A stretch of DNA of 32,000 bases, from NCBI GenBank assembly GCA_964528635.1, contig CAZGSW010000004.1:5667-37666 (forward strand), read 5' to 3'. Every line of letters starts with the position of its first letter. Positions within the stretch are counted from its first letter, which is position 1. This document shows, in pieces, positions 9,702 to 30,659 of the stretch. Source of the DNA: an uncultured Rhodoplanes sp. GTDB lineage: Bacteria > Pseudomonadota > Alphaproteobacteria > Rhizobiales > Xanthobacteraceae. The notes under the pieces were generated by a model. The model did no database searches, was not told where the DNA came from, and saw only the letters and a list, made by a program, of their open reading frames with translations. Made by a program: the position numbers and the translations under genes.

Positions 9702-9711
9702 AGGACACAGC

Positions 9712-13124: not shown

Positions 13125-16100
13125 TCACCGGACCCGTCGACAGTTGCTTCCGGCTACCGGATATGGCGACGGAAACGTCGATGTGCTGGCGACGCCCATA
13201 ATCGAGTAGCTGACAGAGGTGCAGATATATTGGCCCGCGGCAGTCGGCTGACGCTGGCCAGGCGGGCGATGCACTGGAGGTGGACGGCGAACCTCCTGCG
13301 GCGTGGTGCAATTCCACCGGCCATTGCCGGCATAGCTTGTAGCGCGTGAGCGGACATGAACTTGCGTCTGACAGGCCCGATGACCGTCCGCCCAGGTGGG
13401 TGGCCTGCACTTGCGGTCGCGCATGACGTAACCGCCGCTGCATCCGCACTTATAGGTCGAGTTGGGATTGACAGCCATGGCATAGGCCTTGGTCCCGAAT
13501 TCGGTTTGGCATACCGGGTGTCCATCGGCGATCGTCTTTGGCCGCTGAACACAAACGGCAAGAATTTTGTCCAAGACGTAGCCGCTGTTGCATAGGCACA
13601 TCGGAGAAGCCGACATGGCCGTCGCCGGATCGATGTGGGCATTCGTACCGATCTGGAGCTTGCAGCGGTTATCCAAATCCGCGATTTTTTCGTTCTTTTC
13701 ACGATCCCGGCAGGTGCTGAGGGCCTGTATGAGGCGTTGCTTGACGCCACTGGCCGCCGGATTTGAGACTTCTTCCAGCGCCGCCCGCCAGCGCTCGATG
13801 CCCTCGACTTTGCAGGCGGTGACGGCCTGTTCGGCGTTGTTGATAGCGGTGCGAAGCTGGTCGATCCGGCTCAACGCGTTCGTCAGACGCTCGCGCAACT
13901 CGGCGCAGGAGGTGCCGTTCAGGCTTGCAAGCGCGCGCCGCGTCGTACTTTCGGCGGCGCTCAGATCTCCTGCGGCGAAACTTGCCCTGGCTCGCTCAAA
14001 GGCTGCGCTGGCATGGGTAATGGTCTCGCCTTTGGTGAACAGAGAAGTCAGCATCAGATGGGAGATGGATGCGTAACGATCCTTGAGACGGGCCACCTCC
14101 GTTGAGTCGCAGCGACCGATCGCACCGCTCACTTCCGACATGATGCTATCCAGGCGTTCGACCCTGGACATTCCTGTGGCGACCTTTCCAGCAAGTGCGA
14201 TGCAATCGACGCCATTGCCAATCCCGTCCAGCGCGGTTCTCGCGCGTCCTAGATCGGCCCTGGCGTCGTCCATTTTTCCGGCGTTGTAGGCCTGCTGCGC
14301 ATTTGCATAGGCGGCTTGCGCCTGGCTGACCGCTGCGGCGATCGGCTCGAGTCTGGCAATCTGTTCCCTGGCCGCATCGGAGCCATCGTCACGCAGCTTT
14401 GCCAGAATGTCGGCGTTCTGTTGCGGCTGGCAGGTCAGAGCAGCCACGGGCTTTGGTTTCAGCCATGCTTCGTTGAAGGCGACAAGTGCCTCGGCGGCGC
14501 ATCGCTCCATGCGAGCGATGGCTTCGCTCGTCGTCGATCTGATCGCATCGGGATCGAGCGTTGGCGACTGGGCTGCGGTTTCCGGGAGCGCAGGTACCGC
14601 TGCTCCGGCCGGGCATTTCGCGTCGATCCGGGCGATCACGCCACGCAATGCGTCCGGCGGCGGACTGAGGATCATGCTTCTTGACTGCCACGGCGCCATA
14701 TTCCTTGGCGCGCCATCCCCGCGGGGCGGGTCGATATCCTCTTTGGTCCAGCTTTCCTGAATCAGGGCATTGCACCCGATGTTGCTTGAGTTTCTCGTCA
14801 GCAGGCCGGCCAGGATCGTGCGCGGGCGCTCCCCGGCCGGCGACGCGGCAAGAGGCTGGAGGCAGGTCTTGATATCGTCGATGGACACCTTCACCGGCTG
14901 TTGCAGGTCGAAGACGTGCTTTTGCGCATCAGCCATGGCGCTGTGCGCGACCGTAAACCGGCCTCGGGCGCTGCCAAACTCACCGACGATACCATCGAGT
15001 TCACTTCGTATCGCGGCGAGCCGGGATTGCACCTTGGCACGCGCAGCAATCGCTAGCGCCGACGACGGCGGCGGTTGGGCGGCGCTATCGCTCGCCTTGA
15101 GGCCTGCAATTTCGCCGGCACCGGCCGTCAGTTCTCGTGCGACTATCTGCGCTTCGCGGGCGGTGGCAAGCGCGTCGTCCAGGTGAGCGCGCGCTTCCGC
15201 CTTGTTCTTGGCTTTACGGATTTCCTCCGGCGCAGCACAAACGGACTCCACCGCAGCATTCAACGCCGCGCTGTCCCTGGCGACTGACGCAGCGAGCCTC
15301 GCCGATTTCGCCGCATTGTCGCTGGCGGTCGTGTCCGGCGCCGGCAATTCGCACGCCGATGTATCCATTAATTCCAATCGCATGCGCAGATTGCTAGTCC
15401 GCGCCGACAGGTTGCCGCCGACCTCGAGTGCCTGCCGGGCCATAAGCTTGTTCTGCTCGTACCGTGAACAGTAATTGGCAATTCGGTGAGAAAGGCTTGC
15501 AATATGGTTCAGGTCGCCGTCGATCGCGGCCAGCGTTTCATCAAGTTTCTTTTCGAGCTCGAGAAGCTGCGCAGACAGTCCGTCCCATTGCTTGTCATCG
15601 AGCAAAGAGCCCGCAAGTTCATTCAGGCGGGCGTCCGTCAACGCGCCCGCAATTTGAGCCACCTCGGACATTTCCTTGTTCATCTCGGCCAGCTGAGGTT
15701 CAATGGCCTGCCCTATGGTCCTGCGCTGCGCGGCGATTTGGCGTGCCTTGGCGGCAATCCATCCGACCGGTGTCGACGCGTGGGGAAGTCCGCGTCGGTT
15801 GGCTTCAAGGAACTCCTTCAGGGCAAGGCCTTTATCGATGTCCATCTCTTGCGCCTGGTTGCCGAACTCGAACATGGCGGAAAATTTCGCATTCACGATG
15901 CAACCGTCGAAGGCCTCATAGGCGTCCGCGACATTGGTGGTGCGCGCGTATTCTTCCTTGTATTTGTCGATGCAGGGGCCGTCGCCGTGCGTCCAACTCG
16001 TCCGCAGGTAATTGGTGCCCCACTCGATCAGCGCAAATTCGGCATCGACAAGTTTGAGATAGATGTCGCCGGGAGTCAGCGCCGCCATTTTTGATGCAAA

Positions 16101-17129
16101 CAGATCTTGGGCCATTTTGGACGGCAAAAAATCGCCAATAGTGGCGGCACCTTTGCTGAGATCACCGAACCGGCTCGTCTTGCCAGCCTTGTTGACCTTT
16201 CCGGCAAAGCCGCCAATGCCGGCGACGCCGCCGAGATTATTCATAGTTGTCAGGGTGGAATTGAAATCATAGTTGTTGGCACTGAACGCAAAATTGATGG
16301 CGGCTTTCATGAGATCGCGGGTTTGGGCTTTGCCTTCCGCTTTCAATTCTTCGGTTATGATTTTCATGGCGTCGCTGCCGGATCCGCCATTTTTGAGCGC
16401 CAGCAATACGCGCTTGGCGGCGCCGGCATGTTTGACACCCCGGTCCCAGATGACCTTTGCATTGACCATCTTTTTTTCCTTGAGGACATCGCTCACGATG
16501 GTGGCGAAACTCAGCGCGCCCAAGTCGGCGCCGTGATCCACCACGGTGTAGTAGTCGCCAGCCGAAAGCGCGCCGGCAATTTCTCCCATTGCCGACGGGT
16601 TGGCCTTGATTGCGTCGTAAATGGCCCGCGCATACTTCGCTTTATAAGCTTCGATCAGGCTGGGTTTCGTGCGCTTTATCTCTTCGTCGATCAATTGACC
16701 GAGCGGTTTTCCCTTGCCTGACGCAAGCACCGCGCTGCCATCTGCCGCCCTGTCAAAAATGCGACTGGTCACAGAAGCCTTGTCGCGCTCCATTCGGTCT
16801 CTTGTAAAGATCCGCCGCTTCAGGTCTTCGGCCTTTTTCCGGGCTTCCGACTTTTCCAGGGTCTTCACGACGGCGGCATGGGCGGTCGTCAATTCCTGGC
16901 GCATCCACTCCAGCACCTGATCATGCTGGCTGGAATTGAGCATCTTGATCGGGTCACCGGCGTTACGCAGGTTGTCGCCGGGACTGGAGCTCCTGCCCAG
17001 CAAGTTCATCAACGTTTCGGCGAATGTCGCCCGCGGCAGCGCCGGGCAACTATTGGCAGCCTGCGACGAGTTGACGGGCCAACAGACAATTCCGATCGCC
17101 AGTAATGATACCAAACTTTTCAAGCGCAT
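13125..17129 (-). CDS. very large secreted protein: N-terminal unknown domain, long Ala-rich helical repeat region, Cys-rich C-terminal modules
   Basis: 1334-aa uninterrupted ORF. Signal peptide MRLKSLVSLLAIGIVCWPVNSSQA. Internal ~70-aa repeats (AQAAYANAQQAYNAGKMDDARADLGRARTALDG...C versus ASAAFERARASFAAGDLSAAESTTRRALASLNG..C). C-terminal CxC-x2-GYV modules. Starts 13 nt after the upstream gene. Confidence 0.8.
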   Translation of the reverse strand: MRLKSLVSLLAIGIVCWPVNSSQAANSCPALPRATFAETLMNLLGRSSSPGDNLRNAGDPIKMLNSSQHDQVLEWMRQELTTAHAAVVKTLEKSEARKKAEDLKRRIFTRDRMERDKASVTSRIFDRAADGSAVLASGKGKPLGQLIDEEIKRTKPSLIEAYKAKYARAIYDAIKANPSAMGEIAGALSAGDYYTVVDHGADLGALSFATIVSDVLKEKKMVNAKVIWDRGVKHAGAAKRVLLALKNGGSGSDAMKIITEELKAEGKAQTRDLMKAAINFAFSANNYDFNSTLTTMNNLGGVAGIGGFAGKVNKAGKTSRFGDLSKGAATIGDFLPSKMAQDLFASKMAALTPGDIYLKLVDAEFALIEWGTNYLRTSWTHGDGPCIDKYKEEYARTTNVADAYEAFDGCIVNAKFSAMFEFGNQAQEMDIDKGLALKEFLEANRRGLPHASTPVGWIAAKARQIAAQRRTIGQAIEPQLAEMNKEMSEVAQIAGALTDARLNELAGSLLDDKQWDGLSAQLLELEKKLDETLAAIDGDLNHIASLSHRIANYCSRYEQNKLMARQALEVGGNLSARTSNLRMRLELMDTSACELPAPDTTASDNAAKSARLAASVARDSAALNAAVESVCAAPEEIRKAKNKAEARAHLDDALATAREAQIVARELTAGAGEIAGLKASDSAAQPPPSSALAIAARAKVQSRLAAIRSELDGIVGEFGSARGRFTVAHSAMADAQKHVFDLQQPVKVSIDDIKTCLQPLAASPAGERPRTILAGLLTRNSSNIGCNALIQESWTKEDIDPPRGDGAPRNMAPWQSRSMILSPPPDALRGVIARIDAKCPAGAAVPALPETAAQSPTLDPDAIRSTTSEAIARMERCAAEALVAFNEAWLKPKPVAALTCQPQQNADILAKLRDDGSDAAREQIARLEPIAAAVSQAQAAYANAQQAYNAGKMDDARADLGRARTALDGIGNGVDCIALAGKVATGMSRVERLDSIMSEVSGAIGRCDSTEVARLKDRYASISHLMLTSLFTKGETITHASAAFERARASFAAGDLSAAESTTRRALASLNGTSCAELRERLTNALSRIDQLRTAINNAEQAVTACKVEGIERWRAALEEVSNPAASGVKQRLIQALSTCRDREKNEKIADLDNRCKLQIGTNAHIDPATAMSASPMCLCNSGYVLDKILAVCVQRPKTIADGHPVCQTEFGTKAYAMAVNPNSTYKCGCSGGYVMRDRKCRPPTWADGHRACQTQVHVRSRATSYAGNGRWNCTTPQEVRRPPPVHRPPGQRQPTAAGQYICTSVSYSIMGVASTSTFPSPYPVAGSNCRRVR

Positions 17130-17142: not shown

Positions 17143-17688
17143 TCAGTCCAAACTATTGAGGTCTTTCAAATTGGCGGGCGGGGGCGCGGGCACCGTAGTG
17201 GCCCGTTGCGCCGGCTGAGGTGAAACTGTTCGCGGCGGGGAGCCCTGAGCGGACTGGCTCATAGCCCGCAGTCCCGTTATCAACTTTTCGCTCATTTCGC
17301 CTCGACGGAACATCCAGTTTTGACAAAAGGATGTGGTCAGGCCCGTCGCATTTGGCGCGCGACGCACCGACAATGTGTAGGTCGCGCCAGGCGTGAATTT
17401 GACGCCGCAAGACGCCGACAAGCCGCTGCGATGGTGCACCGTGACAGTCGCCTTTACCGAAGTGCCTTTGAATGGCTCGACCACTTCGAAGCTTGTAATT
17501 GAACTGCCGCGCTCGGCGGCCACGGTGCTGCGCGCGATGCCGGTAAACACCGCATCGGAGTGCTCGTAAATGCTCTGGGCGGTCGGCTGGCGCGGGCATG
17601 AGCAGGCGGCGGCAAAGTCGAGCGGTAATATTGCGCCGATCGCCGCGGCAACAAAAAAGGCAAAGGTATTGCGTGAAAAACACGGCAT
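17143..17688 (-). CDS. secreted protein with a TIMP/netrin (NTR)-like N-terminus (mature end Cys-x-Cys)
   Basis: Start taken at ATG 17688 (MPCFSRNTFAFFVAAAIGAILPLDFAAA). The predicted mature N-terminus CSCPRQPTAQSIYEHSDAVFTGIA...FEVVEPFKG parallels the TIMP start [25 protein letters not shown]...KG. Pro-rich C-terminal tail. Confidence 0.55.
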   Translation of the reverse strand: MPCFSRNTFAFFVAAAIGAILPLDFAAACSCPRQPTAQSIYEHSDAVFTGIARSTVAAERGSSITSFEVVEPFKGTSVKATVTVHHRSGLSASCGVKFTPGATYTLSVRRAPNATGLTTSFCQNWMFRRGEMSEKLITGLRAMSQSAQGSPPRTVSPQPAQRATTVPAPPPANLKDLNSLD

Positions 17689-17885
17689 GGAGTATGTACC
17701 CTTGCGATTCTTGCTCCGTTCGTCCGGAGCGCTTCGTCCACCTTCCGCACCGTGAACCTGCACGAGGCCGAGCCAAAAAGCAGCGCCCCGCCTTGGTACA
17801 AAGGTACCAGTGTCTCGGCGACTGAACGCCCAATAAACGATTCACACCGCCGCCATTTCGAGGGAGACCGTTGCGGCGCGATTTG

Positions 17886-18974
17886 TCAGCCGGCCGACCC
17901 CGGATTAATCAACCCCAGAACTTGCGCCATCAGCTCGCCGCGATTGCGCACGCCCGTCTTGCGATAGATGTTTTGCAGATGGTTGCGCACGGTGTTGCGC
18001 GTCAACGCCAACTCATTTGCAACGTTCTGGAGATCCAGCCCGCATGAAATCGATGACAGGATACGGGCTTCGGACGGTGTAAGCCCAAACATCGCTGGCG
18101 CCGCGCGTTCGAGGAAACCGGCATATCGGCGCGGATCGCGAATGAATATTTTTGCTTCTCGGCTGCCTGGCATCGGCAGGGTCTGCACAATCAATGTCGC
18201 CTCGGGCTTTGGAAGCGGCAGGCGTAATAGTCCAGACGTGCCCGATGCGGCTTTGGCGAGCAGGCTACGAAGCAAGACATTCAATGAAGGAGTGCCGGTC
18301 AGTAGTTCGCCGTCAACAAGGGACAATCCGCTGCCTTCACTGATCAGATTTTCTGCCGCGCTATTGGCAGTGACGACTGCGCCTTTTGCGTCAAGCGAGA
18401 ACACCGCCCACGGCAAATGCTCGTACAGAGGATCGGCGCGCAATAACTGCCGTTCGCTTGCCTGACGGGACTTGGAAAGCTTCCAGGCTTTGGCAAGATT
18501 TTCTGAGGTCCTGGAAAACGCATTGATTTTATCGCTGTCGGGATGACCTTGCCTGGCTTCAAATTCAATCGAATGAAATACCGAGACATCGCCATCATCG
18601 TAAAGCCGCGTCCCGAGAAAATAGCGAACATTGCTGGCCCGCTGAATGGCCGCGTAAAATTCACTTCGGTCGATCGCGGCCTCGGATATAAACCGGGCTT
18701 CATAAGCGATATGGCCCGGCGCATGGCGCAAGGAATAGCGCATCCGCGGATTAATCGCGTTGAGATGATCGATATATTCCTGAGCGCCGTGCTGAAGTCC
18801 CGGCCCGATCCAGTTGCTGATTTTTCCGGTCTTGCGGTTGAGCTCGAAAATGACGCCCCCACTGCTGTCGTAGTGGTCAAGCAGTTTTCCAAGAACGCGC
18901 TCGAACGGCAGCTCGCCGAGTGCGGCGTCAAACATCAGGCTATCCAGGCGCGAAATGTCGTCGAGCCGTGACAT
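17886..18974 (-). CDS. LuxR-family transcriptional regulator (unknown N-terminal sensor domain plus GerE HTH)
   Basis: 362 aa. C-terminal LTPSEARILSSISCGLDLQNVANELALTRNTVRNHLQNIYRKTGVRNRGELMAQVLGL. Confidence 0.85.
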   Translation of the reverse strand: MSRLDDISRLDSLMFDAALGELPFERVLGKLLDHYDSSGGVIFELNRKTGKISNWIGPGLQHGAQEYIDHLNAINPRMRYSLRHAPGHIAYEARFISEAAIDRSEFYAAIQRASNVRYFLGTRLYDDGDVSVFHSIEFEARQGHPDSDKINAFSRTSENLAKAWKLSKSRQASERQLLRADPLYEHLPWAVFSLDAKGAVVTANSAAENLISEGSGLSLVDGELLTGTPSLNVLLRSLLAKAASGTSGLLRLPLPKPEATLIVQTLPMPGSREAKIFIRDPRRYAGFLERAAPAMFGLTPSEARILSSISCGLDLQNVANELALTRNTVRNHLQNIYRKTGVRNRGELMAQVLGLINPGSAG

Positions 18975-19075: not shown

Positions 19076-19297
19076 CTATCCAGCGATTGCGGCAAATTGT
19101 CCGGGACGGTGCCACCAGTACCCCCGGGTTGAGAACTGCTTCACCCAGTCGCGAAGCTGCGATGCGTGGACACTTAGATCCTGCGAAGCCTGCACATACG
19201 AGACGGCCCAATCCTTGATCAGGCGCACCGACTCAAGCTTGAACTCTCGCGTAGACTGCCGCCTCCGCGTGACGCACCTCCAGTCCCATGAAAACAC
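19076..19297 (-). pseudogene. IS3-family OrfA (HTH) remnant, homologous to the one at 4440-4575
   Basis: RRRQSTREFKLESVRLIKDWAVSYVQASQDLSVHASQLRDWVKQF, then loss of similarity. No OrfB follows. Confidence 0.7.
19133..19207. repeat. right copy of the direct repeat shared with 4446-4521
   Basis: See the left copy. Same orientation, about 80% identity by hand alignment. Confidence 0.7.
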
Positions 19298-20563: not shown

Positions 20564-20714
20564 GTCACTATATGCACATGCACATGCACCCTGCCCTGCT
20601 CTGTCTGGCCACGTACTCCGACTATCGGGACTTATCGTTACACACCACGATCAATTCCAGTTACGCACGGCGCTGAGCCCCATGCACTGACTGCGTGCCC
20701 CTTTTGAAATCCAA

Positions 20715-20746
20715 TAGGGCGCGGGTGTACCGCGCCCTATTTTTTT
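20715..20746 (+). terminator. Rho-independent terminator
   Basis: Perfect 10-bp stem TAGGGCGCGG / CCGCGCCCTA (20715-20724 and 20730-20739), 5-nt loop GTGTA, followed by T7 (20740-20746). Confidence 0.65.
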
Positions 20747-20885
20747 GACCGCGCCCGAGGGTTTGTGGACAATTCGTCTTCGATAACCCGCGATTCTGCC
20801 GGCGTTGCGTGTCTCCAATACCTGGGCGAGCCCGCTGCATCAAAGCCGAACACATTGATTCGAAGAGGTGGTGGATTGAGAAGAT

Positions 20886-20945
20886 GATCGCCTCCAGCGA
20901 CACCTTGGCCTTGAACTCAGACGTAAACCGTCTCGGCGTTCGCAT
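20886..20945 (-). pseudogene. IS3-family OrfA N-terminal remnant (about 20 codons)
   Basis: MRTPRRFTSEFKAKVSLEAI matches the conserved IS3-family OrfA start (RRFTxEFKAKVxLEAL). Similarity ends abruptly afterwards. Confidence 0.55.
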
Positions 20946-21068: not shown

Positions 21069-22166
21069 TTAAGTATTTGATATCGCTAGCCCGCAGGGTA
21101 GCGGTGCAGGACTCGGCTTGTGTCCGTGCAAAAGACGACAAAACTCGGCAAAGATCAGGTTCCAGGATGCCACCCCATGCATCCTGATCCAAAACCGCAG
21201 TACATCCCGAACGCAATCTCTCAACGGTCGGTTTAGCGCCGTCGCCACCTGCTCCCATTCATGCCGGATGCTGAGCCAAGTCTGTTCATCGACATCTTCA
21301 ACAGCAAGGGTGTGGGCTACATCTGGGTGCCGGGCACCGCGTGCATACCGGGAATGAAACGCGCGAACAAAACCCTGCATAGCGTCAGCCCGCTTCACGC
21401 AATCGCCACCAATTTGAAGCGATTGTCGGAGAGCCGTATCCACTTCACCACGCAGCGCGGCTAGCCAGCACTCCGCGATCTGCTTTCCTTTGCCAAACCC
21501 GCATGCAGATAACGCCTCATTCACTCCTATCGCGCCGCCTATGATGCCTACCTGAAGAGACGCTTGCGCACGCCCAACCCACCCGTCGGAACCGCAGGCC
21601 AAGATTTCAAGCGCCCTGTCTTCATAATTCACACGGTGAGCGATGCATCTCGTTCGCAAGTCAGCCACAACTTCCCCGATGGGAGACGGGATCATTTCGT
21701 AAACCTGACATCGAGACTTGATGGCGGCACTCACCTTCATCATATCGGACGATAAAAACACAGCCACATGAAGCTCGATTTTCTCAAGCGGCTTCAGCAG
21801 CCGGTCCGATACTGGTCCCGGCAGGCACTCCGCGTTTCGCACAACCAAAACGAGGGGCTCCATCCCTACCGAACGAAGCTTGGTCAGTTGGTCACGAACG
21901 TGATCGTGTGAATGGTGCACTCGCGCGTCAAGCTCAATGTAACGCAGGGATCCGGCTGCCATAACCCCCTGGCAGTTCGAGCAAACACCGCATGGCTTTG
22001 TGGGCGATTGGCAAAGCACGCTCTTTGCGTAGAGCCTTGCAAGGCTCAATTTACCGGAGCCCTCGGGCCCCCATAGCATGAGGGGCCGATGCTTGCCGGC
22101 CGCGCTGCGCTCAAGCAAGGCCGCTACCACCACTTTCTGTCCGACGACATCGTTGAAATGCTTCAT
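21069..22166 (-). CDS. clamp-loader delta-prime (HolB)-like AAA+ protein with a degenerate ATP site
   Basis: 365 aa. FNDVVGQ, P-loop GPEGSGKL (Thr/Ser replaced by Leu), zinc module CQSPTKPCGVCSNC, Walker-B position LVLVVRNAE (no DE), retained SRC motif (KSRC). ATGA overlap with the upstream gene. Confidence 0.8.
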   Translation of the reverse strand: MKHFNDVVGQKVVVAALLERSAAGKHRPLMLWGPEGSGKLSLARLYAKSVLCQSPTKPCGVCSNCQGVMAAGSLRYIELDARVHHSHDHVRDQLTKLRSVGMEPLVLVVRNAECLPGPVSDRLLKPLEKIELHVAVFLSSDMMKVSAAIKSRCQVYEMIPSPIGEVVADLRTRCIAHRVNYEDRALEILACGSDGWVGRAQASLQVGIIGGAIGVNEALSACGFGKGKQIAECWLAALRGEVDTALRQSLQIGGDCVKRADAMQGFVRAFHSRYARGARHPDVAHTLAVEDVDEQTWLSIRHEWEQVATALNRPLRDCVRDVLRFWIRMHGVASWNLIFAEFCRLLHGHKPSPAPLPCGLAISNT

Positions 22167-23299
22167 TCTGTCGACGCAGCCGACTGAACATCTTGACCCG
22201 ACAGCAAGGCGGCAACATTCGACGAGGAACCAAGCTCGCTGGCGCTCCTAGCGCACGCACCTACAACCGCCTCAAACAACGAACGCCTCCTCTTTCCCAA
22301 GGCCGTTTCGAATTCGCCTCCAAACAAAGCATTCTTGAAACTCGAGGGCTCCCGCAACCATTCTTCGTCGTCGGTGGCCATGTGGTCACGGCACAGTCGC
22401 TCTACCGCAGGAACGAGCGGAGACGTTAAAAGCACACGCTCGCTCAACATCAATCGCAAAGCCCAGGAAATATACCGAGCCGGCGGCCCCAGTTTCTGCT
22501 TGTTGCGCCGATACCGCCTGTCCGTGCCGCAAATGGCCTTTTCGGTCGCGGAGTACAGCTCCGCGAGTATCGCAGAATTTGTCCTTAGTTTTTCCGTCTT
22601 CATGACATCGACCGCCTGCAGCAGCCGCCGAATTTGCAAATGCCCTCGGTCTTCAAGGAAATCCATGACGCATTCGTTGAGAACTTCGCCGCGGAGACTT
22701 CTTCGTTTGTTTGAGAGCTGGCTCGCGAAGGTCGGCGACAGGATTGTCATGTCGACCAGTTTCGCAATCTCCCCCAGCGACCATGACTTGTCCGCCAAGG
22801 TGGAACGAAGGATTCTAAAAGCGACCGCGTGAGCATTTCGGAACTGATCGTAGCCATTCCGCCGAACCAAAAACTCAAAGATTTCTTTCACATTGGATTT
22901 CGATACCCGGGGCTCCTCGATGATGACCGCGTTTGCTGCGGCGCTGGTCCATATTTCCGAAGATGCTTCATCGTCGTGGGCCCGAACAAAAATGCAAAAT
23001 GAACTCAATCGCCCGTTCAGCGCTATCACGTTTAAGGCTTCTACCAAAACTGCGTTTCGGCGCTCCGTTCCGACATCACACATCGCAAGCGTTTCACCGA
23101 AGAGGCCATCAACACTTAGTAGCTTCAGCGACAACTCGCTCGGCACCACAGTCTCCGCCATGACATGGCACGCCTCGGCCTCTTCAAGGATCCGCTCGCG
23201 AACGGGCGCCTTGAGATACCCGCTTCGGTAGCGATAAATGACCCGTATTCCGGGATGTGGGGAGGGATCCGACAGAAATCGAACATCAGACGTATTCAT
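22163..23299 (-). CDS. hypothetical protein; possible clamp-loader delta (HolA)-like subunit
   Basis: 378 aa with no P-loop. Size and position lie between the DnaX-like and delta-prime-like genes. Delta-like landmarks by eye: IRVIYRYRSGYLKAPVRERILEEA, DGLFGETLAMCDV, PRVSKSNVKEIFEFLVRRNG. Overlaps the upstream gene by 14 nt and the downstream gene by 4 nt. Confidence 0.7.
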   Translation of the reverse strand: MNTSDVRFLSDPSPHPGIRVIYRYRSGYLKAPVRERILEEAEACHVMAETVVPSELSLKLLSVDGLFGETLAMCDVGTERRNAVLVEALNVIALNGRLSSFCIFVRAHDDEASSEIWTSAAANAVIIEEPRVSKSNVKEIFEFLVRRNGYDQFRNAHAVAFRILRSTLADKSWSLGEIAKLVDMTILSPTFASQLSNKRRSLRGEVLNECVMDFLEDRGHLQIRRLLQAVDVMKTEKLRTNSAILAELYSATEKAICGTDRRYRRNKQKLGPPARYISWALRLMLSERVLLTSPLVPAVERLCRDHMATDDEEWLREPSSFKNALFGGEFETALGKRRRSLFEAVVGACARSASELGSSSNVAALLSGQDVQSAASTE

Positions 23300-25268
23300 C
23301 TAGTGCACCATCAGCCAAGCCCAGCCGCACCCGCAATTGCGTTAGTTCGGCGGCGGCAAGATCAAATTGCTTGGCTCCCTTTGGCTCCATCGAATTCTCC
23401 AACTTTGATCGGATTTGATGCGCGGTGACCTCCCATCCGGAGTACAGCTCCGGCCAATTTTGGGCGTTAAAAGCCGATAAGAATGGAAGCCCGCCTCGCA
23501 TCGCAATACGGCGAAGGTCTTTGCCGCAGGAATCCGACGAAGCGTAGCGGTTTCCGGCGCCGAGGTTTCCAATAGAGCGGCCGCTGATACCAAGTTCCTT
23601 CGGCGCCTCGTCCAGCTTGAGGCCTCCGCAAAGCCAGCGAATACAGCTCCAGTGTGCCTCCAGTGGATTTGCGTCACGAGCGACCTCGAAGCTGGCAGCA
23701 TCGGCCTTTCGTTCCTCGGCTCGATCGCGCAGCCGCCAATGCCGAAGCCAACGTTGCAAATCAGCGACGGTCTCATCTTGGAGGTCAGGTAGCGAAATGA
23801 TCATCCGGACGCAAAGTCCGAGATTTGGGTCCACCTCTTGCACCAACATGCGATCGTTGTGCCCGAACCACGCTTTCAGCCGCTGGCTGAGGGCGGCCGA
23901 GAACAAGCCGGTATTCTTACCGGCTGCCTTCTGGTCGCGGCAGCCAAACGCATCGTGTCGTACGGTAATTTGAACATTAAATTGCCGCCCGGATTCTTGC
24001 ACAAGAGCCGATGCGAAGTTGTAGATCTTCTGAACCTCAGCGATTGAGAGGTAATTTGGATCTCTCTCGCTTGCCTTGTTTCTAACGGACGGCTTCGCTC
24101 GCTTATCATCGATTGGCCTGCTGGCAACTTCGTCGGCAATCGCAGGCCTCTTGCCGAGATCGCTCTCGCATACGCGCTCCTGGAACAGGATAACCTGCGA
24201 CAGAAGGCCTTCGTCACTAAGCTCTGCCAGATTGATGGGAAGAAGACCCAGCATTTCCTGCCACGCACGCCGCAGGCCGGCTTCGTTCTGAAATCTACGA
24301 CCGAATGCGTCGATGATGGGCTTCTTCTCATCCGCCTTGATAGACCCGATAAGCGGGTCAACTACCATTGGCGAGCCCGTCAGGTCGTTGTAGTAAATCG
24401 AAACCAGCAAGCCCTGTATCATTGAGAGCTTGCGACGTAGAGGAGCGCGCCATTCGAAAAACAGGTTTGATTGGCTATCAAACTTTCCCTCTCCTAAAGC
24501 GACGAAGTATTGCAGCAGCGATTCAGTATCCGCCACGCCAAAGCTGGCCCTTACTCCGGCCCGTGTCACTGAGCCGACGATAAGGACCTGGTCCAATGCT
24601 TGGAGCATGTTGCGGGGCTGCCCTTCGCCCAGCCCCCAAATTAGCGTCAACGCCTCTTCTTCGAAACCAACCTTCCCTTCGTCTCTGAGCACACGGCGCA
24701 GCAGGGCGGTACCTTCTTCAGCCCCCACCGGATGAATCTGAAGCTCCAGCATTCTGGATTTCAATGCACCAGAAATTTTTTCTGGCTGCGTGGTTGCGAA
24801 GATGTAAGTTACCTCCGAAGGGGCTTCTTCGAGCTCCTTCAAAAGAAAGTCTGCAGATTCTTTCCATCGGCTGAGACTGTGCGCTTCATCAATAAATATT
24901 ACCCGCGCATCTTGAGGAGCCGGACGAGGGTGTATGAAAGGTCGCAGCGAATTTTTGAAATCAGTTTCCTTGTCAAAGGAAGGCGCATCAAATTCAATAA
25001 ATTTCGATGTCTCGGTATTAGAAGGCTGGCAGCCTCGGCAGACCAGGCAAGGAGACCCGTCCGCTTCTAAGGAAACACAACATAAGGCCTTTGCATAAAT
25101 GCGTGCGAGCGTAGTCTTGCCCGACCCGATACTTCCATAAAGCAGGATGTGCCTGCGATTTCGCGTGAGGCTTAACGAACGCAGAATTTCCACCGGTATT
25201 GGTTGCCCCACGACCTCTGAGTATCTTTGAGGGCGATATTTCGTTCCAAGAGCACCGTTTTGCGTCAT
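23286..25268 (-). CDS. DnaX (gamma/tau)-like AAA+ ATPase with an unrelated C-terminal ~250-aa domain
   Basis: 660 aa. KYRPQRYSEVVGQ, Walker A GSIGSGKTT, zinc module CCVSLEADGSPCLVCRGC, Walker B VIFIDEAH, LLKELEEAP, sensor-1 IFATT, KSRM at the SRC position, sensor-2 GEGQPRNMLQALDQ. After about aa 370 comes a basic linker (DDKRAKPSVRNKASERD) and an unrecognised domain. Confidence 0.85.
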   Translation of the reverse strand: MTQNGALGTKYRPQRYSEVVGQPIPVEILRSLSLTRNRRHILLYGSIGSGKTTLARIYAKALCCVSLEADGSPCLVCRGCQPSNTETSKFIEFDAPSFDKETDFKNSLRPFIHPRPAPQDARVIFIDEAHSLSRWKESADFLLKELEEAPSEVTYIFATTQPEKISGALKSRMLELQIHPVGAEEGTALLRRVLRDEGKVGFEEEALTLIWGLGEGQPRNMLQALDQVLIVGSVTRAGVRASFGVADTESLLQYFVALGEGKFDSQSNLFFEWRAPLRRKLSMIQGLLVSIYYNDLTGSPMVVDPLIGSIKADEKKPIIDAFGRRFQNEAGLRRAWQEMLGLLPINLAELSDEGLLSQVILFQERVCESDLGKRPAIADEVASRPIDDKRAKPSVRNKASERDPNYLSIAEVQKIYNFASALVQESGRQFNVQITVRHDAFGCRDQKAAGKNTGLFSAALSQRLKAWFGHNDRMLVQEVDPNLGLCVRMIISLPDLQDETVADLQRWLRHWRLRDRAEERKADAASFEVARDANPLEAHWSCIRWLCGGLKLDEAPKELGISGRSIGNLGAGNRYASSDSCGKDLRRIAMRGGLPFLSAFNAQNWPELYSGWEVTAHQIRSKLENSMEPKGAKQFDLAAAELTQLRVRLGLADGALDEYV

Positions 25269-25392
25269 GCAGTTACCATATCGTGCTTAGCATTGTGGCT
25301 GCCAGCGCGGTACTGATCGCACCGGCAAGGAGGCCCGTCGCACGGGCCGACCGTCTCACATACCGAAGCGTCGCGAAATGGTTCATCAGCAG

Positions 25393-25647
25393 CTACCCCC
25401 GCAATGAGGGCACTGCCGAAAAAGTTTCCGCAGGCGCCGGTGGCCCGCCTTCGGGCGGATGCACGCCGACGCATCCGGCCGCAGCAGCGTTAAGGGCGGC
25501 CTGAGGCCCCGCACCGTCGCGGTGCAGGGGGCCAGGCTTGCCCATTTCATCGAGCCCGAGAAGACCGTACTCGCGGCGCAGACGTGCCCGAATCTCGGGA
25601 TCGTCGATCTTGATGAGATCCCGTTGGAGAGCGGCAAAATTATTCAT
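25393..25647 (-). CDS. hypothetical small protein (84 aa), weak call
   Basis: ATG 25647 overlaps the upstream stop by 8 nt. Product is MNNFAALQRDLIKIDDPEIRARLRREYGLLGLDEMGKPGP... Its 3' end overlaps a competing 69-aa ORF (25265-25474). Confidence 0.35.
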   Translation of the reverse strand: MNNFAALQRDLIKIDDPEIRARLRREYGLLGLDEMGKPGPLHRDGAGPQAALNAAAAGCVGVHPPEGGPPAPAETFSAVPSLRG

Positions 25648-26218
25648 CGCCACCCCCTTTGGCGTTGAGCGGGATGCCAAAGGCGGCAAAAAGGTTGCCA
25701 TCATCGGGAGCATCTCGGCGACGGCGAAACCACCCAAACCATCTGTTCGATTTAACAGGTGGCATAGGCGGCTGAAGGCGCGCTTGGACCAAGATGCCGA
25801 GCACGCCAGCCTCTTCGACATCAACGGACAGGATCAGATCGGCCGCTTCCTGATCTTCATGACCAAAGATTTTGTTTTCCATGATAGCGAGGGCCCGGAA
25901 AGATGGGGGCTCGATCGCAGCGATTTCAGCAATGGTTGCTTCCCTCCAAAGTCCCGGCATGCCGCCAGCATCGACGCCGATGACTTTGACGCGAGGATTT
26001 GGCGGGTGAAGAACGCCTTCCTGGCCGGTCTCCCGGAGATGTTGTTTGGTGCACTCCGAAACAAGGCTAGTCCATTTTTCGTCCACCCAAGCACCTGATT
26101 CAGGGCATGGATCAGTTCTGGTGGTTGCCGCCGCAAGCAGGTTTGCGAACGGGGTGCATTCCTCTTCGTTTGCCTCCGGCGGACCTGCTTGGTCCGCCGG
26201 GCTCGGTTTGCCAGTCAT
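25640..26218 (-). CDS. hypothetical protein (192 aa)
   Basis: Start taken at ATG 26218 (MTGKPSPADQ...). The ORF-track extension to 26389 would overlap the upstream gene. No family recognised. Confidence 0.45.
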   Translation of the reverse strand: MTGKPSPADQAGPPEANEEECTPFANLLAAATTRTDPCPESGAWVDEKWTSLVSECTKQHLRETGQEGVLHPPNPRVKVIGVDAGGMPGLWREATIAEIAAIEPPSFRALAIMENKIFGHEDQEAADLILSVDVEEAGVLGILVQARLQPPMPPVKSNRWFGWFRRRRDAPDDGNLFAAFGIPLNAKGGGDE

Positions 26219-26258
26219 GAAATGGTTCTTTCGATTAATGGTTATGGTTCGCTGCTCG

Positions 26259-26537
26259 CTAATCCGCGAACAGGCTCGGCAGCCGGTTGGGTGCGACGTA
26301 CGGCTTTTTGGAAGGTTGACGGCGAACCTTGCGAGGGCGCTCAAGCGTCGCATGACGCTCTCGGGCCAAGGTCTGATAGAAGCCATCACCTTCGCAGCAG
26401 GACGCCAACATCGCGCGCGAACGTGCGTTGTCGCCGATCAGATCGGCTTCACAGCAAGCTCGGGCACGGGTCTCGGGATCGGCATGCCTGCCGATTTCAC
26501 GCAAAATGTCTGTAAGTAATGGTTTGGATTTTGCCAA
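26259..26537 (-). CDS. hypothetical small protein with two CCE(A/G)D motifs
   Basis: GGAGG (26543-26547, minus strand) lies 5 nt upstream of TTG 26537. Product is (M)AKSKPLLTDILREIGRHADPETRARACCEADLIGDNARSRAMLASCCEGDGFYQ... A GTG at 26549 is the alternative start. Confidence 0.4.
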   Translation of the reverse strand: MAKSKPLLTDILREIGRHADPETRARACCEADLIGDNARSRAMLASCCEGDGFYQTLARERHATLERPRKVRRQPSKKPYVAPNRLPSLFAD

Positions 26538-26854
26538 AATGGCCTCCACTGTTATGGAGCGCCACGACCCGCCGGGTCAGTAAAAGCGGCTCCTATACAT
26601 ATAGAGATTTGGAGGCCTACCTTCGCACCTGAATCGAAAATAATTTTTTGGCGTTCAATATTTGGTAGGTGCTCTCCCGTGGAACGCTATTAATTGATGC
26701 CTATTCGGAGCTAGCGGCTGCTTAGTGAGCAGGTCTTGGCACGCTTGGAAAACGCGGTCCTTAGTCGTCAAGGACTGGCGGTCGGACGCTCGGCTGACCA
26801 CGGCCCGTGTCCGAATCCTTGCAGCCCCATCGTAATTTTCGCCGGATGAAGACT

Positions 26855-26881
26855 GAATTCTCCGCCCGGTCAGGAGAATTC
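26855..26881 (+). promoter_or_regulatory. perfect 9-bp inverted repeat covering the SD of the PD-(D/E)XK gene (RNA hairpin or operator)
   Basis: GAATTCTCC (26855-26863), 9-nt spacer, GGAGAATTC (26873-26881). The right arm contains the AGGAGA SD and ends 1 nt before ATG 26883. Confidence 0.35.
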
Positions 26882-26882
26882 G

Positions 26883-27842
26883 ATGCATCGCACTGTCACT
26901 AGTCGAGTGCCCTTTATCGATCCGCTCGTGCTTCGCCGCCACCGCGTGTTTGAGGCAACGGACTCACGATTCCGGGCGGCCGCACGATTTCATCAGGCAC
27001 TGTTCCGCCAGAAACAGGGCTGGCGCCCCGGCCAAATCGAAAGCGGCCAGGGCGCCAAGCGCAGCGTGGGCAGTCTTATCAAACCGTCCGATGCCGCCGC
27101 CGGCGCGAATTTCCTGACAAGGGAGATCGCGGCCCTCGCTAGGCGAGAAATTGCCTACCGAGAAGACATGGCAATGGTCGATCAAGTTCGACTTTGGCAG
27201 AATATGCTGTCGTCTCACCCGCTTGTCTTCAACCTGTTTGGGCCTTTGAAGCTCGACCTCACTCTGGCAACCAAAGTTGCGCAGCGGTTATGGCCTGACA
27301 CCGTCAGCCGCGTTACTGACGTCCTTTTCGAACACTCGCCTTCCCGGCGTGATCCGATTTTTACCGATGATCGCACCGCATTCGATGTCTTGCTGCAGTG
27401 CCAAGATCGCAACGGCAAAAACACGTTCGTCGCCGTCGAAGTAAAGTATTCCGAAACGATGTACGAACCGGCCGCGCGACTGCGTTCCCGGTACGACGAA
27501 CTCTCCAGTACGTCAGGCCTGTACCGGGAACCGGGGAACGCAGCCTTGAGAGCCGTTCCCCTGCAATCGCTCTGGCGAGAACACATGCTCGCTGCGGCGA
27601 TGGTTCAGAATGATCTCTATAAAAGCGGCCGCTTTGTCCTAATCGCACCGGCCGCTAACTCGCCGGTCCAACGGGCAGCAGAGACCTATCGAAAACAGCT
27701 CGCCGACAATCCGCCCATTCCGTTCGAAGCCATAGCTCTCGAAAAGATCATCGCCGTGATCCGATCAGTAGGCGCGAAGAAACTCGCGGATCGTTTATAC
27801 GAACGGTATGTCGACTTCGCTGGGCTCGATCGCTTCATCTGA
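26883..27842 (+). CDS. PD-(D/E)XK-superfamily nuclease-like protein
   Basis: 319 aa with a strong SD (AGGAGA). Motif spacing is typical of PD-(D/E)XK: TAFDVLLQCQDRNGKNTFVAVEVKYSE (D ... E-x-K). Confidence 0.65.
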   Translation: MHRTVTSRVPFIDPLVLRRHRVFEATDSRFRAAARFHQALFRQKQGWRPGQIESGQGAKRSVGSLIKPSDAAAGANFLTREIAALARREIAYREDMAMVDQVRLWQNMLSSHPLVFNLFGPLKLDLTLATKVAQRLWPDTVSRVTDVLFEHSPSRRDPIFTDDRTAFDVLLQCQDRNGKNTFVAVEVKYSETMYEPAARLRSRYDELSSTSGLYREPGNAALRAVPLQSLWREHMLAAAMVQNDLYKSGRFVLIAPAANSPVQRAAETYRKQLADNPPIPFEAIALEKIIAVIRSVGAKKLADRLYERYVDFAGLDRFI

Positions 27843-27899: not shown

Positions 27900-28091
27900 A
27901 TGAGCACCACCAGCAATGAACCGACGTTTCGCGCTTTCACTGTGATCAAACGCGAAGGACAGCAAGATTTTTGGCTCAACATCGGAGCCGCCTTTAGCCA
28001 TCGAGATGGCGGCGGATTTACCCTCGCGCTTCAGGCTTTCCCGCTCGACGGGCGCGTTGTGCTGCGACACCCGAAAGAAACAGAGGCCTAG
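27900..28091 (+). CDS. hypothetical small protein (63 aa)
   Basis: SD AAGGAAG lies before ATG 27900. Product is MSTTSNEPTFRAFTVIKREGQQDFWLNIGAAFSHRDGGGFTLALQAFPLDGRVVLRHPKETEA. It resembles small proteins common on alphaproteobacterial mobile elements, from memory only. Confidence 0.5.
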   Translation: MSTTSNEPTFRAFTVIKREGQQDFWLNIGAAFSHRDGGGFTLALQAFPLDGRVVLRHPKETEA

Positions 28092-28739: not shown

Positions 28740-30659
28740 CTAGGGCTGCGGTAAGCCGACCACGATTTCTTCAGGATCAAACCACCCTTCAGCAATGGCG
28801 TAGTCGCGGACACTTTGTGGCTCAGGAGTGTAGTGCACGATTGCAAGGCTGCGTTCCGCGCGGCTGCAGGTCACGTAGAACAAGCGCCGGGTGCGGTCGA
28901 TGGTGGTTTCTTTGCCTTCATTTTCGTTTTTCAGGTCGGTTTCGCTCTTGGCCTTGGCGCCGAGGAGCTTGTCGTAGTTGAAAAGAAAGCCTCGCGATTC
29001 TTCGTCGTCGATGATCACCATGACGCGTGGAAATTCGAGGCCTTTGACGCCCTGATGCGTGTCGAACGGGGCCTTTCCAGAAATGTAAAGGGCATAGGCC
29101 TCAATCTGCGAAAACGGGACAGCGAGCGCTTGGTCCCATGCCGCGATGAGCTCGTCTGCACTGTCCTCGCCGACGCCTCCTGATTGGGCTGGCGCGGCTG
29201 TCGATACAGGATCGGCCGCTACCCTCGCCGCGATCGGCAGGAGGACGTCCGGAACTCTAAACAAGCCGGATGCATGGACCTGCCGAAGCACATCAATGAT
29301 CGCTGGATCGGCGCCGCCATCCCATAGGGCGAGGAGACGCGCCGTTGCCTCGTTGGCCTTGCGCACAATTTCGAGCTGGCCTGCTCCCGCCTTTTTGAGA
29401 TGGTCCTTGGCGAGCAGTGGCGAACTTTTCCGCGCGATCGCGGCGACCGCGTAGGCGTCGCCTTTCAGCTTGGCTTGCACGAGAGGCAAGACTTCATTGA
29501 CGAAGAGCGGGATTCCTGAGAGCGATCCGTCGAGCAACCCGGTGCGCACGCGCTCGACCCGATAGAGCGGCATGAAGAACTCCAGGAAGCCCATGCGCCG
29601 GGCCGCCATGTGGTGTTCGAGCGTGAGCGTCTTGAAAGCGCCTGTATCGGGGTGCCAGTCCGCGTCGCTCGCAATCCCGGCCATGCGTTCGGCGACGGCA
29701 GCCTCGGCTTTGAACTTTTCTGGCGTCGTAGCGGGAAGAACAAAGAGCCGGACGGTGCCGCCTTGCTTGTCGGTGCGGGGGCGTTGCTGCTGATCGTCAA
29801 CGGCTGATCGGATTTTATTGATAAGGCGAACGATACGGCTTGGGCATCGGTGGTTCATGATTTTTGCGGGACGGCGCCAACCGTCGGGCAAGCCAGACGG
29901 CAAGTCCACTTTTCCATCCGCATAAATTCGCTGCATAGTGTCGCCAAACAGGCCGAGGCCGAACCGCGCCGCATGGACGCGCTGCACCGTCAGGAAGGCT
30001 TCCATCAGGTGCCGATTGGTGTCCTGGCTCTCGTCGATTAGCAGGAACGGATACTTGTTGACGAAGATCCGCTGCAGGGCTGGTTTTTCTGACAGAAACG
30101 CAGCCGTGATCGCAATTACCTCACTATGGTTGAGAGAGTCGCGGCCACGATTGTCACCCGTCGGGCTATAGGTAAAACGTTTGACGGTAGCCAGCGCTGA
30201 TAACCGCGCACGTTTGCTCTCGATACTCTTGGCGCGGTCGAGCGAAGCCTTTGAAGCGCGGCCTTTCTGCTGCGCTTCTTCGAGTTCGGCGATTTCACGC
30301 GTCAGATTCTTTCGAATCCATTCACGGATGTCATTGTGATAACCGCTGATAAGCTGCCATGAGAAGCTATGGATAGTCGCGACATCAACAAGCGGATCGA
30401 ACTTGAGCCGCTGCCTGATTTCATCGCATGCCGCGTTGGTATAGGTGATGACGCCGAACCGCTGTCCCTTGAGCACGAGGCGCCGTCCATAGGTTTCGCG
30501 CAGCCTGTCCACAGCATTGACAAGCGACCGGGTCTTGCCCGAGCCCGCGCCGGCGAACAGGAAAAAGCTGACGGGCGTCACTAGGTTCAGACAGGCACGG
30601 ATTTCTTCATCCACGCCATCATCCAGGTGATCGTCGTCTATCACGTCCGCCGTGCTCAT
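28740..30659 (-). CDS. UvrD/PcrA/Rep-like SF1 helicase, GajB-like partner of an OLD-family nuclease
   Basis: 639 aa. Walker A FAGAGSGKTRS, motif Ia ITYTNAACDEI, TIHSF, motif II LLIDESQDTN, VKGLEFPRVMVI, YVTCSRAERSL. ATGA-type 4-nt overlap with the upstream OLD-family gene. Confidence 0.85.
   Translation of the reverse strand: MSTADVIDDDHLDDGVDEEIRACLNLVTPVSFFLFAGAGSGKTRSLVNAVDRLRETYGRRLVLKGQRFGVITYTNAACDEIRQRLKFDPLVDVATIHSFSWQLISGYHNDIREWIRKNLTREIAELEEAQQKGRASKASLDRAKSIESKRARLSALATVKRFTYSPTGDNRGRDSLNHSEVIAITAAFLSEKPALQRIFVNKYPFLLIDESQDTNRHLMEAFLTVQRVHAARFGLGLFGDTMQRIYADGKVDLPSGLPDGWRRPAKIMNHRCPSRIVRLINKIRSAVDDQQQRPRTDKQGGTVRLFVLPATTPEKFKAEAAVAERMAGIASDADWHPDTGAFKTLTLEHHMAARRMGFLEFFMPLYRVERVRTGLLDGSLSGIPLFVNEVLPLVQAKLKGDAYAVAAIARKSSPLLAKDHLKKAGAGQLEIVRKANEATARLLALWDGGADPAIIDVLRQVHASGLFRVPDVLLPIAARVAADPVSTAAPAQSGGVGEDSADELIAAWDQALAVPFSQIEAYALYISGKAPFDTHQGVKGLEFPRVMVIIDDEESRGFLFNYDKLLGAKAKSETDLKNENEGKETTIDRTRRLFYVTCSRAERSLAIVHYTPEPQSVRDYAIAEGWFDPEEIVVGLPQP

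Follow-up and report, generated by a model that had tools for sequence, protein, structure and literature searches.

Why should an alphaproteobacterial contig carry, close to a known defence system, three genes that together resemble a complete bacterial clamp loader? The question is raised by contig CAZGSW010000004.1 of an uncultured Rhodoplanes sp. (assembly GCA_964528635.1), of which 32,000 nucleotides (positions 5,667 to 37,666 of the forward strand) were analysed; this whole stretch is referred to as the window, and its positions are counted from its first nucleotide. The three genes lie on the minus strand and encode a gamma/tau-like motor subunit (g1, 23286-25268, 660 aa), a P-loop-less middle subunit that is a candidate delta-like 'wrench' (g2, 22163-23299, 378 aa) and a delta-prime-like stator that is a DnaX paralogue (g3, 21069-22166, 365 aa). 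Our answer is that this triad is an accessory, mobile and nuclease-linked set of clamp-loader paralogues for which no earlier description was found. An earlier reading made from the letters of the DNA alone (the sequence-only reading) had proposed that the three minus-strand genes are coupled, and both overlaps were recovered at the expected coordinates when the sequence was read directly: the end of g1 (…GAATACGTCTGA) and the start of g2 (ATGAATACGTCTGAT…) share 14 nt, and the stop of g2 and the start of g3 overlap as ATGA. Since the order g1-g2-g3 was found again in more than 20 independent loci, the triad is not a chance arrangement.

The first 265 residues of g1 match DnaX (TIGR02397, E 4.7e-47, 160.9 bits against a cut-off of 250), and g1 reaches an E-value of about 1e-30 against the E. 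coli gamma/tau chains among PDB sequences. Its AlphaFold2 (AF2) model, obtained from the 29-sequence family alignment, has a mean predicted local distance difference test score (pLDDT) of 85, and residues 1-370 of the model superpose on E. coli gamma, collar included (Foldseek E 1e-16, TMt 0.73-0.77, about 373 columns). This part comprises AAA+ domains I-II, a 4-Cys zinc module and collar domain III, followed by a disordered linker (residues 376-400) and a conserved alpha/beta C-terminal domain (residues 405-650) with invariant Trp, Arg and Glu positions and the motifs FN..I.IRH..FGC, VQE, HWxCVRWLCxGL and LSAFD..W..LYxGWEL; a full-length Pfam scan found no domain in g1 beyond residue 196. The motif-for-motif match to DnaX domains I-III that had been read from the window sequence extends to the family, as all listed motifs are present and conserved in the 29 members: GSGKTT, the four Cys, IDEAH, LLKxLEE, FATT, SR[M/L/C] and GQPRN are invariant or nearly so, and the arginine at the SRC position (R172) and the sensor-2 arginine in GQPRN (R219) are strictly invariant. 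The SRC position itself reads SRM in the window and SRL or SRC in other family members. Among the features of the clamp-loader clade, Walker A, Walker B, sensor-1, arginine finger and sensor-2 are thus all present in g1, which by its motifs is predicted to be a catalytically intact DnaX-type AAA+ protein with, according to the model, the full gamma-type fold.

A second protein of DnaX type is encoded by g3, which matches DnaX (TIGR02397, E 3.3e-29, 102.2 bits) better than HolB (TIGR00678, E 4.2e-16, 59.1 bits). A profile of 50 g3 sequences aligns to residues 13-371 of g1 with an hhalign E-value of 1e-55 over 345 columns, indicating that g3 has the same three-domain body as g1, and AAA+ domains I-II with the helical collar could be recognized in both proteins, in g1 from its model and in g3 from its alignment to g1. 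In the window, the P-loop of g3 reads GSGKLS and the Walker-B position VVRNAE, and KSRC is kept. The same degraded nucleotide site is seen in 51 sequences (7 stand-alone and 44 fused), in which the P-loop GxGK is followed by R, L or H in place of T or S, both Walker-B acids are replaced (VVRNAE, VIHNAD and similar) and sensor-1 is lost, and in which the SR[C/S] arginine and the 4-Cys zinc module are kept. An inactive nucleotide site combined with a retained SRC arginine, as in a delta-prime-type stator, is thus found in g3 and 50 relatives. The sequence-only reading had called g3 delta-prime-like, and this holds for the dead ATP site with its SRC motif but not for descent: judged from its sequence, g3 is a DnaX duplicate that has converged on delta-prime features, not a HolB orthologue.

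The middle protein, g2, has no P-loop and found no match in Pfam, NCBIfam, PADLOC, PHROGs or PDB sequences. The Pfam and NCBIfam searches gave nothing at E<=1 apart from noise, HolA (delta, PF06144) included, the g2 profile matched nothing among the PDB sequences, and a comparison with the single E. coli HolA gave E 0.35. It is also the fastest-changing member of the triad, with 61% identity between the window and its closest relative (locus L002), compared with 80% for g1 and 68% for g3; word-index searches with g2 returned only 3-4 relatives, and an exhaustive HMMER scan returned 195 representatives at 50% clustering. Conserved positions of the family include [IV]YxYR[ST]GxL[RK] at residues 21-30, [S/G]LF at residues 65-67 (L in 85 and F in 84 of 111 sequences) and [IV]EEPx[VI][TS] at residues 127-133, with an invariant E129. 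When the 111 g2 sequences were aligned with a HolA alignment of six species, the hhalign score of 22.5 (E 0.033, 154 columns, g2 26-190 versus delta 27-193) exceeded all 40 shuffled or reversed controls (maximum 21.1); g1 and g3, which are true homologues, reach only E about 1e-3 against the same shallow six-sequence profile. The g2 [S/G]LF falls on delta S72-L73-F74, where all six HolA sequences have [S/G]LF, and these residues we take to be the hydrophobic plug that delta inserts into the beta clamp.

The structural comparison of g2 points in the same direction. In its AF2 model (pLDDT 50), an N-terminal beta-alpha-beta domain is followed by two helical regions, and nearly all of the top 50 Foldseek matches in the PDB are clamp-loader or ORC/Cdc6 AAA+ subunits, with Bacillus subtilis delta (3zh9) at rank 3 (E 4.4e-4) and E. 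coli delta at ranks 18, 26 and 28. Taken together, g2 is likely to be a delta-like, P-loop-less clamp-loader subunit. Of the earlier proposal for this gene, the lack of a P-loop is borne out, and the delta-likeness carries over with less force (pLDDT 50, TM about 0.3, E 0.033). The HolA sequences used here were drawn partly from multi-megabase PLSDB records that are evidently chromosomes; CP125156.1, NZ_CP064203.1, NZ_AP026896.1 and NZ_CP119142.1 are such multi-megabase 'plasmids', in which holA-lptE and dnaX are found.

How far do the three genes belong together? The order g1-g2-g3 is kept in every locus long enough to show it, and these loci come from JGI, ENA and Logan metagenome contigs, from Bradyrhizobium japonicum and Bradyrhizobium sp. 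CB1015, USDA 4461, RP6 and '21', and from metagenome-assembled genomes (MAGs) of Alphaproteobacteria. In Methylobacterium, Methylorubrum, B. diversitatis and several metagenome contigs, a single fused protein of 750-830 aa takes the place of separate g2 and g3, as exemplified by CAX26988.1, a 'protein of unknown function' of Methylorubrum extorquens DM4. Judged by length, about 61 of the 150 matches listed (~40%; 195 representatives in all) are likely g2-g3 fusions. A C-terminal DNA_pol3_delta2 (DnaX-type AAA+) domain was present in all ten long or intermediate g2 representatives that were scanned with Pfam, and 41 of 49 g2 representatives of at least 680 aa have a P-loop in their C-terminal half. 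Such natural fusions are strong comparative evidence that g2 and g3 act in one complex. The triad is thus conserved as a unit in its loci, often with g2 and g3 joined, and is borne on islands, which answers the question of co-occurrence left by the sequence-only reading.

The family is rare. A pattern scan of one genome per species (185,579 species genomes) yielded about 12 triad loci, among them three in Bradyrhizobium and four in Methylobacterium, with others in Methylobacter, Afipia and Rhizobiales MAGs, and a metagenome scan added four further loci. The distribution is patchy, the family being present in single strains of Bradyrhizobium and Methylobacterium. The triad is, then, a horizontally mobile, rare and island-borne gene set of soil Alphaproteobacteria. 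Among 72,556 plasmid records of PLSDB there was no g2 relative, and g1 matched housekeeping-type proteins only; among 2.9 million viral contigs of IMG/VR there was no family member, and a plasmid or phage origin was rejected on these results. Accessory dnaX genes unrelated to the g1 family do occur in the plasmid records (e.g., NZ_MT075580.1, NC_010381.1, NZ_CP146247.1, NZ_CP067349.1 and NZ_MG973074.1), lying beside a ThiF-family adenylyltransferase gene on Lysinibacillus/Sporosarcina plasmids; Clostridioides plasmids also carry dnaX. In one locus (L071, 8193-14337), each of three genes (the nuclease gene described below, g1 and g3) is interrupted and reads as two or three open reading frames (ORFs), and all three triad genes and the nuclease gene are broken; this copy represents either a decaying locus or frameshift errors of a long-read assembly.

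Could the three genes simply be the organism's own housekeeping dnaX, holA and holB in an unusual arrangement? Source records annotate family members as 'hypothetical', as 'AAA family ATPase' or, wrongly, as 'DNA polymerase III subunit gamma/tau', and the last label, which some sources give to g1 and g3, is what speaks for this explanation. The profile scores do not agree with it, as g1 (160.9 bits) and g3 (102.2 bits) remain below the TIGR02397 cut-off of 250, with housekeeping equivalog cut-offs running from 250 to 1260 and the scores against all PRK models far below them, and g3 (59.1 bits) remains below the holB cut-off of 180.6. The protein g1 lacks tau domains IV-V and has an unrelated C-terminal domain instead, and PF12169/PF12170 occur in none of the g1 family members P0001-P0035, whereas most housekeeping matches (P0036 onward) carry them. 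The g1 family of about 35 clusters is separated from ordinary DnaX by a sharp gap (E 1e-35 to 1e-31, 38% coverage), apparently pseudogenised copies exist, and only about 12 of the 185,579 species genomes have the triad, in single strains in the case of Bradyrhizobium and Methylobacterium. The housekeeping explanation is rejected on the sub-cut-off scores, the missing tau domain and the rarity, and we give it practically no credence. The island loci, together with these scores and this rarity, agree with the sequence-only reading, which had placed an accessory, non-housekeeping clamp-loader-like set in a defence-island setting.

The most constant companion of the triad is a nuclease gene. In the window, nuc (26883-27842, plus strand, 319 aa, divergent from g1) encodes a PD-(D/E)XK nuclease (PF20796 PDDEXK_13/PF22558 REase-ARP) that matches PF20796 over profile positions 2-290 of 290 with an E-value of 5e-102, and its D...E-x-K core (AFD ... 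VEVKYSE) is invariant in 13 homologues. A nuc homologue lies near the triad in 16 of the 21 loci with usable flanks, in varying position and orientation: divergent and 0.2-3.4 kb upstream of g1 in the window, L002, L003, L005-L008, L012, L023, L069 and L071, convergent and 0.5 kb downstream of g3 in L019, about 3 kb beyond g3 in L068, and 5.5-7.5 kb from g1 in L021, L022 and L026. The five loci with no visible nuclease are truncated or of the fusion type, and the remaining neighbours are entirely different in each locus. In 13 loci, the pairwise identities of nuc are correlated with those of g1 (r 0.49, Mantel p about 8e-4), so that the nuclease partly co-evolves with g1; some modules have clearly been swapped. 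The nuclease therefore probably belongs to the system as its effector partner. The sequence-only reading had located it correctly near the triad but treated it as scenery, whereas the 16 of 21 loci make it a recurrent partner.

Directly 3' of nuc lies a small ORF (27900-28091, plus strand, 63 aa), which is kept in the three closest loci (the window, L002 and L021) at 63-72 aa and 55-63% identity (BLAST); it belongs to no Pfam family and may be an accessory component. In another clade, a DUF2958 gene follows nuc instead, being co-operonic with it in at least seven loci. Beyond nuc and the small ORF, a gene for a calcineurin-like phosphoesterase (Metallophos) is found in L002 (6071-6721), L021 (706-1005) and L023 (6616-7275), with 41-57% identity among the proteins; it is absent from the window.

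The block that carries the triad differs from its surroundings. The GC content is 0.53-0.57 over 21-25 kb and 0.58-0.65 in the left half of the window, consistent with the A/T-richer DNA noted earlier, and the insertion sequence (IS) scar that had been suspected at the 3' end corresponds to IS3-type transposase remnants 3' of g3, namely OrfA fragments on the minus strand at 19076-19297 and 20661-20945 (HTH_Tnp_1 E 6e-6), the second of which starts MRTPRRFTSEFKAKV. These remnants mark the distal edge of the inserted block. Locus L001 is the window locus on a longer contig, and DNA similarity between it and L002 is confined to the triad (76% over 4,249 bp), with no blastn or tblastx similarity anywhere outside it. 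The divergent 1.6-kb spacer between nuc and g1 (25269-26882) presumably holds promoters; a promoter and terminator scan was uninformative. Two ORFs of 237 and 84 aa that have been called elsewhere in this spacer were rejected as components of the system, as they have no Pfam hits and are not conserved even in the L002 locus, where g1 is 80% identical.

The neighbours of the triad are in large part known defence systems. In the window, a complete Gabija pair adjoins nuc on the minus strand, with GajB at 28740-30659 (E 7e-251) and GajA from 30656 to the end of the window (E 2e-164); GajA exits the window and measures 769 aa in L001. With the PF20796 match of nuc, these two profile matches substantiate the PD-(D/E)XK nuclease and the Gabija-like pair that had been recognized by eye, and the pair is a separate, known system. 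Elsewhere, the triad is found near SIR2-HerA and an LmuB-like SMC protein (L023), PDC-S21 and a type II methyltransferase (L003), a UvrD-nuclease, pPIWI-RE and Bil components (L019), and a VWA/PP2C/kinase trio (L068). Other neighbours belong to mobile elements: a P4-type tyrosine integrase gene lies 1-2 kb beyond g3 in five loci, and DUF3768, DUF932 and ATP-dependent ligase fragments occur near some loci.

In fusion-type loci and their relatives, the product of the gene directly upstream of g1 measures about 520 aa and combines a J-domain at its N-terminus with a VapE-like/DUF5906 P-loop domain. The gene was located in L008 (8364-9941), L009 (4554-6065), L012 (3747-5303), L013 (122-1705), L014 (8290-9849), L025 (1031-2725) and L026 (8045-9331), and has the same direction as g1 in L008, L009, L011-L014 and L025 and is divergent in L026. 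It is absent from window-type loci; the DnaJ/VapE-like protein is part of the system in one clade. A further arrangement was observed in L021 (1552-9825), where a second, very divergent g1-like gene (5773-7854, 23% identity, with DnaX- and HolB-level matches) is joined by two divergent unknown genes (425 and 384 aa), with an ATP-dependent DNA ligase gene between it and the canonical triad; this divergent set may represent a further and more distant form of the system.

What, then, might the triad do? We tentatively favour, with slightly less than even confidence, the reading that the operon provides a dedicated, mobile clamp-loader-type AAA+ complex that works with the PD-(D/E)XK nuclease as a DNA-directed conflict module, most likely directed against phages or plasmids. 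An undescribed DNA-sensing conflict system is suggested because the triad mostly travels with the nuclease in defence or integrative islands. If the complex is built like gamma3-delta-delta-prime, its ATP-driven motor would consist of several g1 copies; a single g3, rigid and inactive as an ATPase, would act as the stator and supply its SRC arginine to the g1 beside it, and one g2 would be the P-loop-less end subunit, with the collar domains holding the ring together. The overlapping genes and the natural g2-g3 fusions lend such an assembly indirect support. Such a complex could recognise a DNA discontinuity, i.e., a primer-template or 5' junction, which would be abundant in the replicating DNA of an invader. 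It might then open or load the host beta clamp via the g2 [S/G]LF, or act directly via the C-terminal domain of g1, and either route would recruit or license the nuclease, possibly with involvement of the g1 C-terminal domain. The more specific form of this scheme, an immune system with its own clamp loader in which the g2 [S/G]LF opens, loads or strips the host beta clamp at invader junctions and the clamp licenses the nuclease, appears possible but, on balance, somewhat unlikely.

Several observations weigh against the conflict-module reading. The defence role is one that we infer only from the neighbourhood, and no system model in PADLOC-DB v2 matches the triad or nuc; g1 finds P-loop-level matches there (mad8, 5.7e-6 over 28 residues; IetA), g3 reaches E 0.035, and g2 and nuc match nothing. 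No nuclease gene lies within the flanks of three fusion-type Methylobacterium loci, and no clamp-binding motif was recognised in nuc. For g1, the C-terminal domain had no match among PDB sequences at E<=0.1 (the best, at E 0.69, was Cas1), and in fold searches with the whole model, matches of the N-terminal clamp-loader part swamp the results and no C-terminal fold was identified. For g2, the AF2 model is poor (pLDDT 50 from a 5-sequence alignment), its Foldseek TM-scores are only 0.25-0.33 (E 1e-4 to 1e-3), and its profile gave no significant hhalign match to those of g1 and g3 (E 0.1-0.5). In addition, some loci resemble the backbones of conjugative or integrative elements, with ArdC (within 1 kb of the system in L014 and L022), DUF2958 and the VapE-like gene directly upstream of g1.

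These last features lead to the main rival of the conflict module, in which the triad would help an integrative or conjugative element to replicate or establish itself by loading the host beta clamp on element DNA, such as primed single strands that follow transfer or excision, with the VapE-like/DnaJ protein as an initiator- or helicase-type partner and the nuclease used for processing or for anti-host functions. The DnaJ/VapE-like gene in several loci, the nearby ArdC, the DUF2958 gene in the operon of nuc, the DUF3768, DUF932 and ligase fragments and the adjacent P4-type integrases would all fit such a role, and the delta-like SLF of g2 suggests a real clamp interaction. Nevertheless, conservation of the triad does not extend to a polymerase, a primase domain, a clamp or a recognisable origin, the VapE-like gene is missing from window-type loci, and no member occurs in the 72,556 plasmid records or the viral contigs. 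The nuclease is the only constant partner, the immediate neighbours are mostly known defence systems, and the fast change of g2 (61% versus 80% for g1 between L001 and L002) is more typical of conflict interfaces. On this evidence we consider an element-replication role unlikely.

Much the same doubt applies to a third possibility, that the proteins have kept clamp-loader architecture and handle no sliding clamp, the g1/g2/g3 spiral binding DNA or an invader protein and acting as an AAA+ switch that gates the nuclease directly. Defence systems most often pair an ATPase with a nuclease, and the neighbouring Gabija is an example; no clamp gene accompanies the triad, g2 has diverged so far that no clamp-loader profile matches it significantly, and the large family-specific C-terminal domain of g1 could dock the nuclease or a trigger. 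Against it, the full division of labour between gamma, delta and delta-prime has been kept (collar, zinc module, arginine fingers and dead stator), which is hard to explain without the ancestral mechanism, and the g2 [S/G]LF (L 85/111, F 84/111) aligns with the clamp-binding residues of delta, so that a clamp-free switch seems rather improbable to us. Finally, the host might have acquired the triad as an alternative clamp loader that serves its DNA repair or damage tolerance, comparable to the replication factor C (RFC) variants Rad24-RFC, Ctf18-RFC and Elg1-RFC, with the nuclease processing a lesion or flap. The architecture parallels that of alternative RFC, Rad24-RFC subunits are among the Foldseek matches of g1 and g2, and a nuclease gene and ligase fragments lie nearby. 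A host repair function agrees poorly with an extremely patchy, strain-specific distribution that includes one apparently decayed copy, and with a position beside integrases, IS remnants and defence genes and no encoded alternative clamp such as 9-1-1; we regard it as very unlikely.

The triad shares features with several known systems. One is the E. coli gamma/tau3-delta-delta-prime complex (DnaX, HolA and HolB): DnaX resembles g1 in domains I-III, the zinc module, Walker A/B, the sensors and the SRC-position arginine, delta-prime resembles g3 in the dead ATP site and retained SRC, and delta appears to resemble g2 in size, three-part layout, lack of a P-loop and the SLF-type motif, the alignment being weak. 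None of the three is orthologous to its E. coli counterpart, as all fall below the equivalog cut-offs, and whereas the E. coli genes are dispersed (dnaX-ybaB-recR, tmk-holB and lptE-holA, the last checked in E. coli), the triad forms one coupled operon or is partly fused. Where E. coli DnaX has tau domains IV-V, g1 has an unrelated C-terminal domain of 250 aa, and only the triad is nuclease-linked and island-borne; no clamp or polymerase gene was found in any annotated neighbourhood of the triad loci.

The eukaryotic alternative RFC complexes (Rad24/Rad17-RFC, Ctf18-RFC and Elg1/ATAD5-RFC), subunits of which are among the Foldseek matches of g1 and g2, resemble the triad as second, specialised loaders. 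In these complexes, one subunit is swapped and four core subunits are shared with RFC, whereas the triad has a dedicated paralogue for each of its three subunit types; triad loci encode no alternative clamp, and the similarity holds only at the general clade level. Phage clamp loaders (T4 gp44/gp62 and DnaX/HolB-like phage proteins) are also related, with PHROG families matching g1 (E 8e-40) and g3 (E 2.6e-23) and BFVD structures matching g1, but they lie in replication modules together with polymerase and clamp, whereas the triad is linked to a nuclease and absent from the 2.9 million viral contigs.

Like the triad with nuc, Gabija (GajA/GajB) combines an NTPase with a DNA nuclease effector in defence islands; its ATPases are of the ABC/OLD or UvrD type, a class unrelated to the predicted clamp-loader AAA+ hetero-oligomer of the triad. 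Clamp-activated nucleases are known in the MutL endonuclease, which acts with beta or with PCNA loaded by RFC, and in NucS/EndoMS, a clamp-stimulated PD-(D/E)XK enzyme. They set a precedent in which a latent nuclease is licensed at DNA discontinuities by a loaded clamp, but as an analogy only, since no sequence relationship to the PF20796 nuclease was found. Full-text literature searches found no description of the system, and this result, together with the lack of a PADLOC model, upholds the statement of the sequence-only reading that it knew of no described counterpart.

The prevailing view, to our knowledge, is that bacteria make do with one essential clamp loader and that specialised alternative loaders belong to eukaryotes, phage replication modules being the only other known case. 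The triad is a complete dedicated set of paralogues, with a predicted motor, a dead stator and a P-loop-less end subunit, and it is mobile, often fused and tied to a nuclease. If the conflict-module reading were confirmed, the clamp-loader mechanism would have been recruited for genome conflict, and bacterial immunity would gain sensors of a new class, able to recognise DNA junctions or to make use of the clamp, and the question would arise whether the host beta clamp is an immune cofactor. Were the more specific scheme true, the triad would be the first case of prokaryotic immunity that relies on a dedicated clamp loader, in parallel to eukaryotic alternative RFC and to clamp-activated nucleases. 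The family also represents a compact natural system for studying the divergence of clamp-loader subunits, including natural delta/delta-prime fusions, and direct testing is possible since carriers such as Methylorubrum extorquens DM4 and several Bradyrhizobium strains are genetically tractable.

Outside the inserted block, the left part of the window carries a sterol-type biosynthesis cluster on the plus strand (5248-13027), which is unusual in bacteria. It contains genes for a Rieske/VanA_C oxygenase, a squalene-hopene/oxidosqualene cyclase, a squalene epoxidase, an NAD epimerase/3-beta-HSD-like dehydrogenase, an FAD monooxygenase and a methyltransferase with Sterol_MT_C. Between this cluster and the IS remnants lie, all on the minus strand, an ORF of 1334 aa with no significant Pfam domain (13125-17129), an ORF of 230 aa that likewise has no Pfam domain (17153-17845) and a gene for a LuxR/GerE-type regulator (17886-18974).

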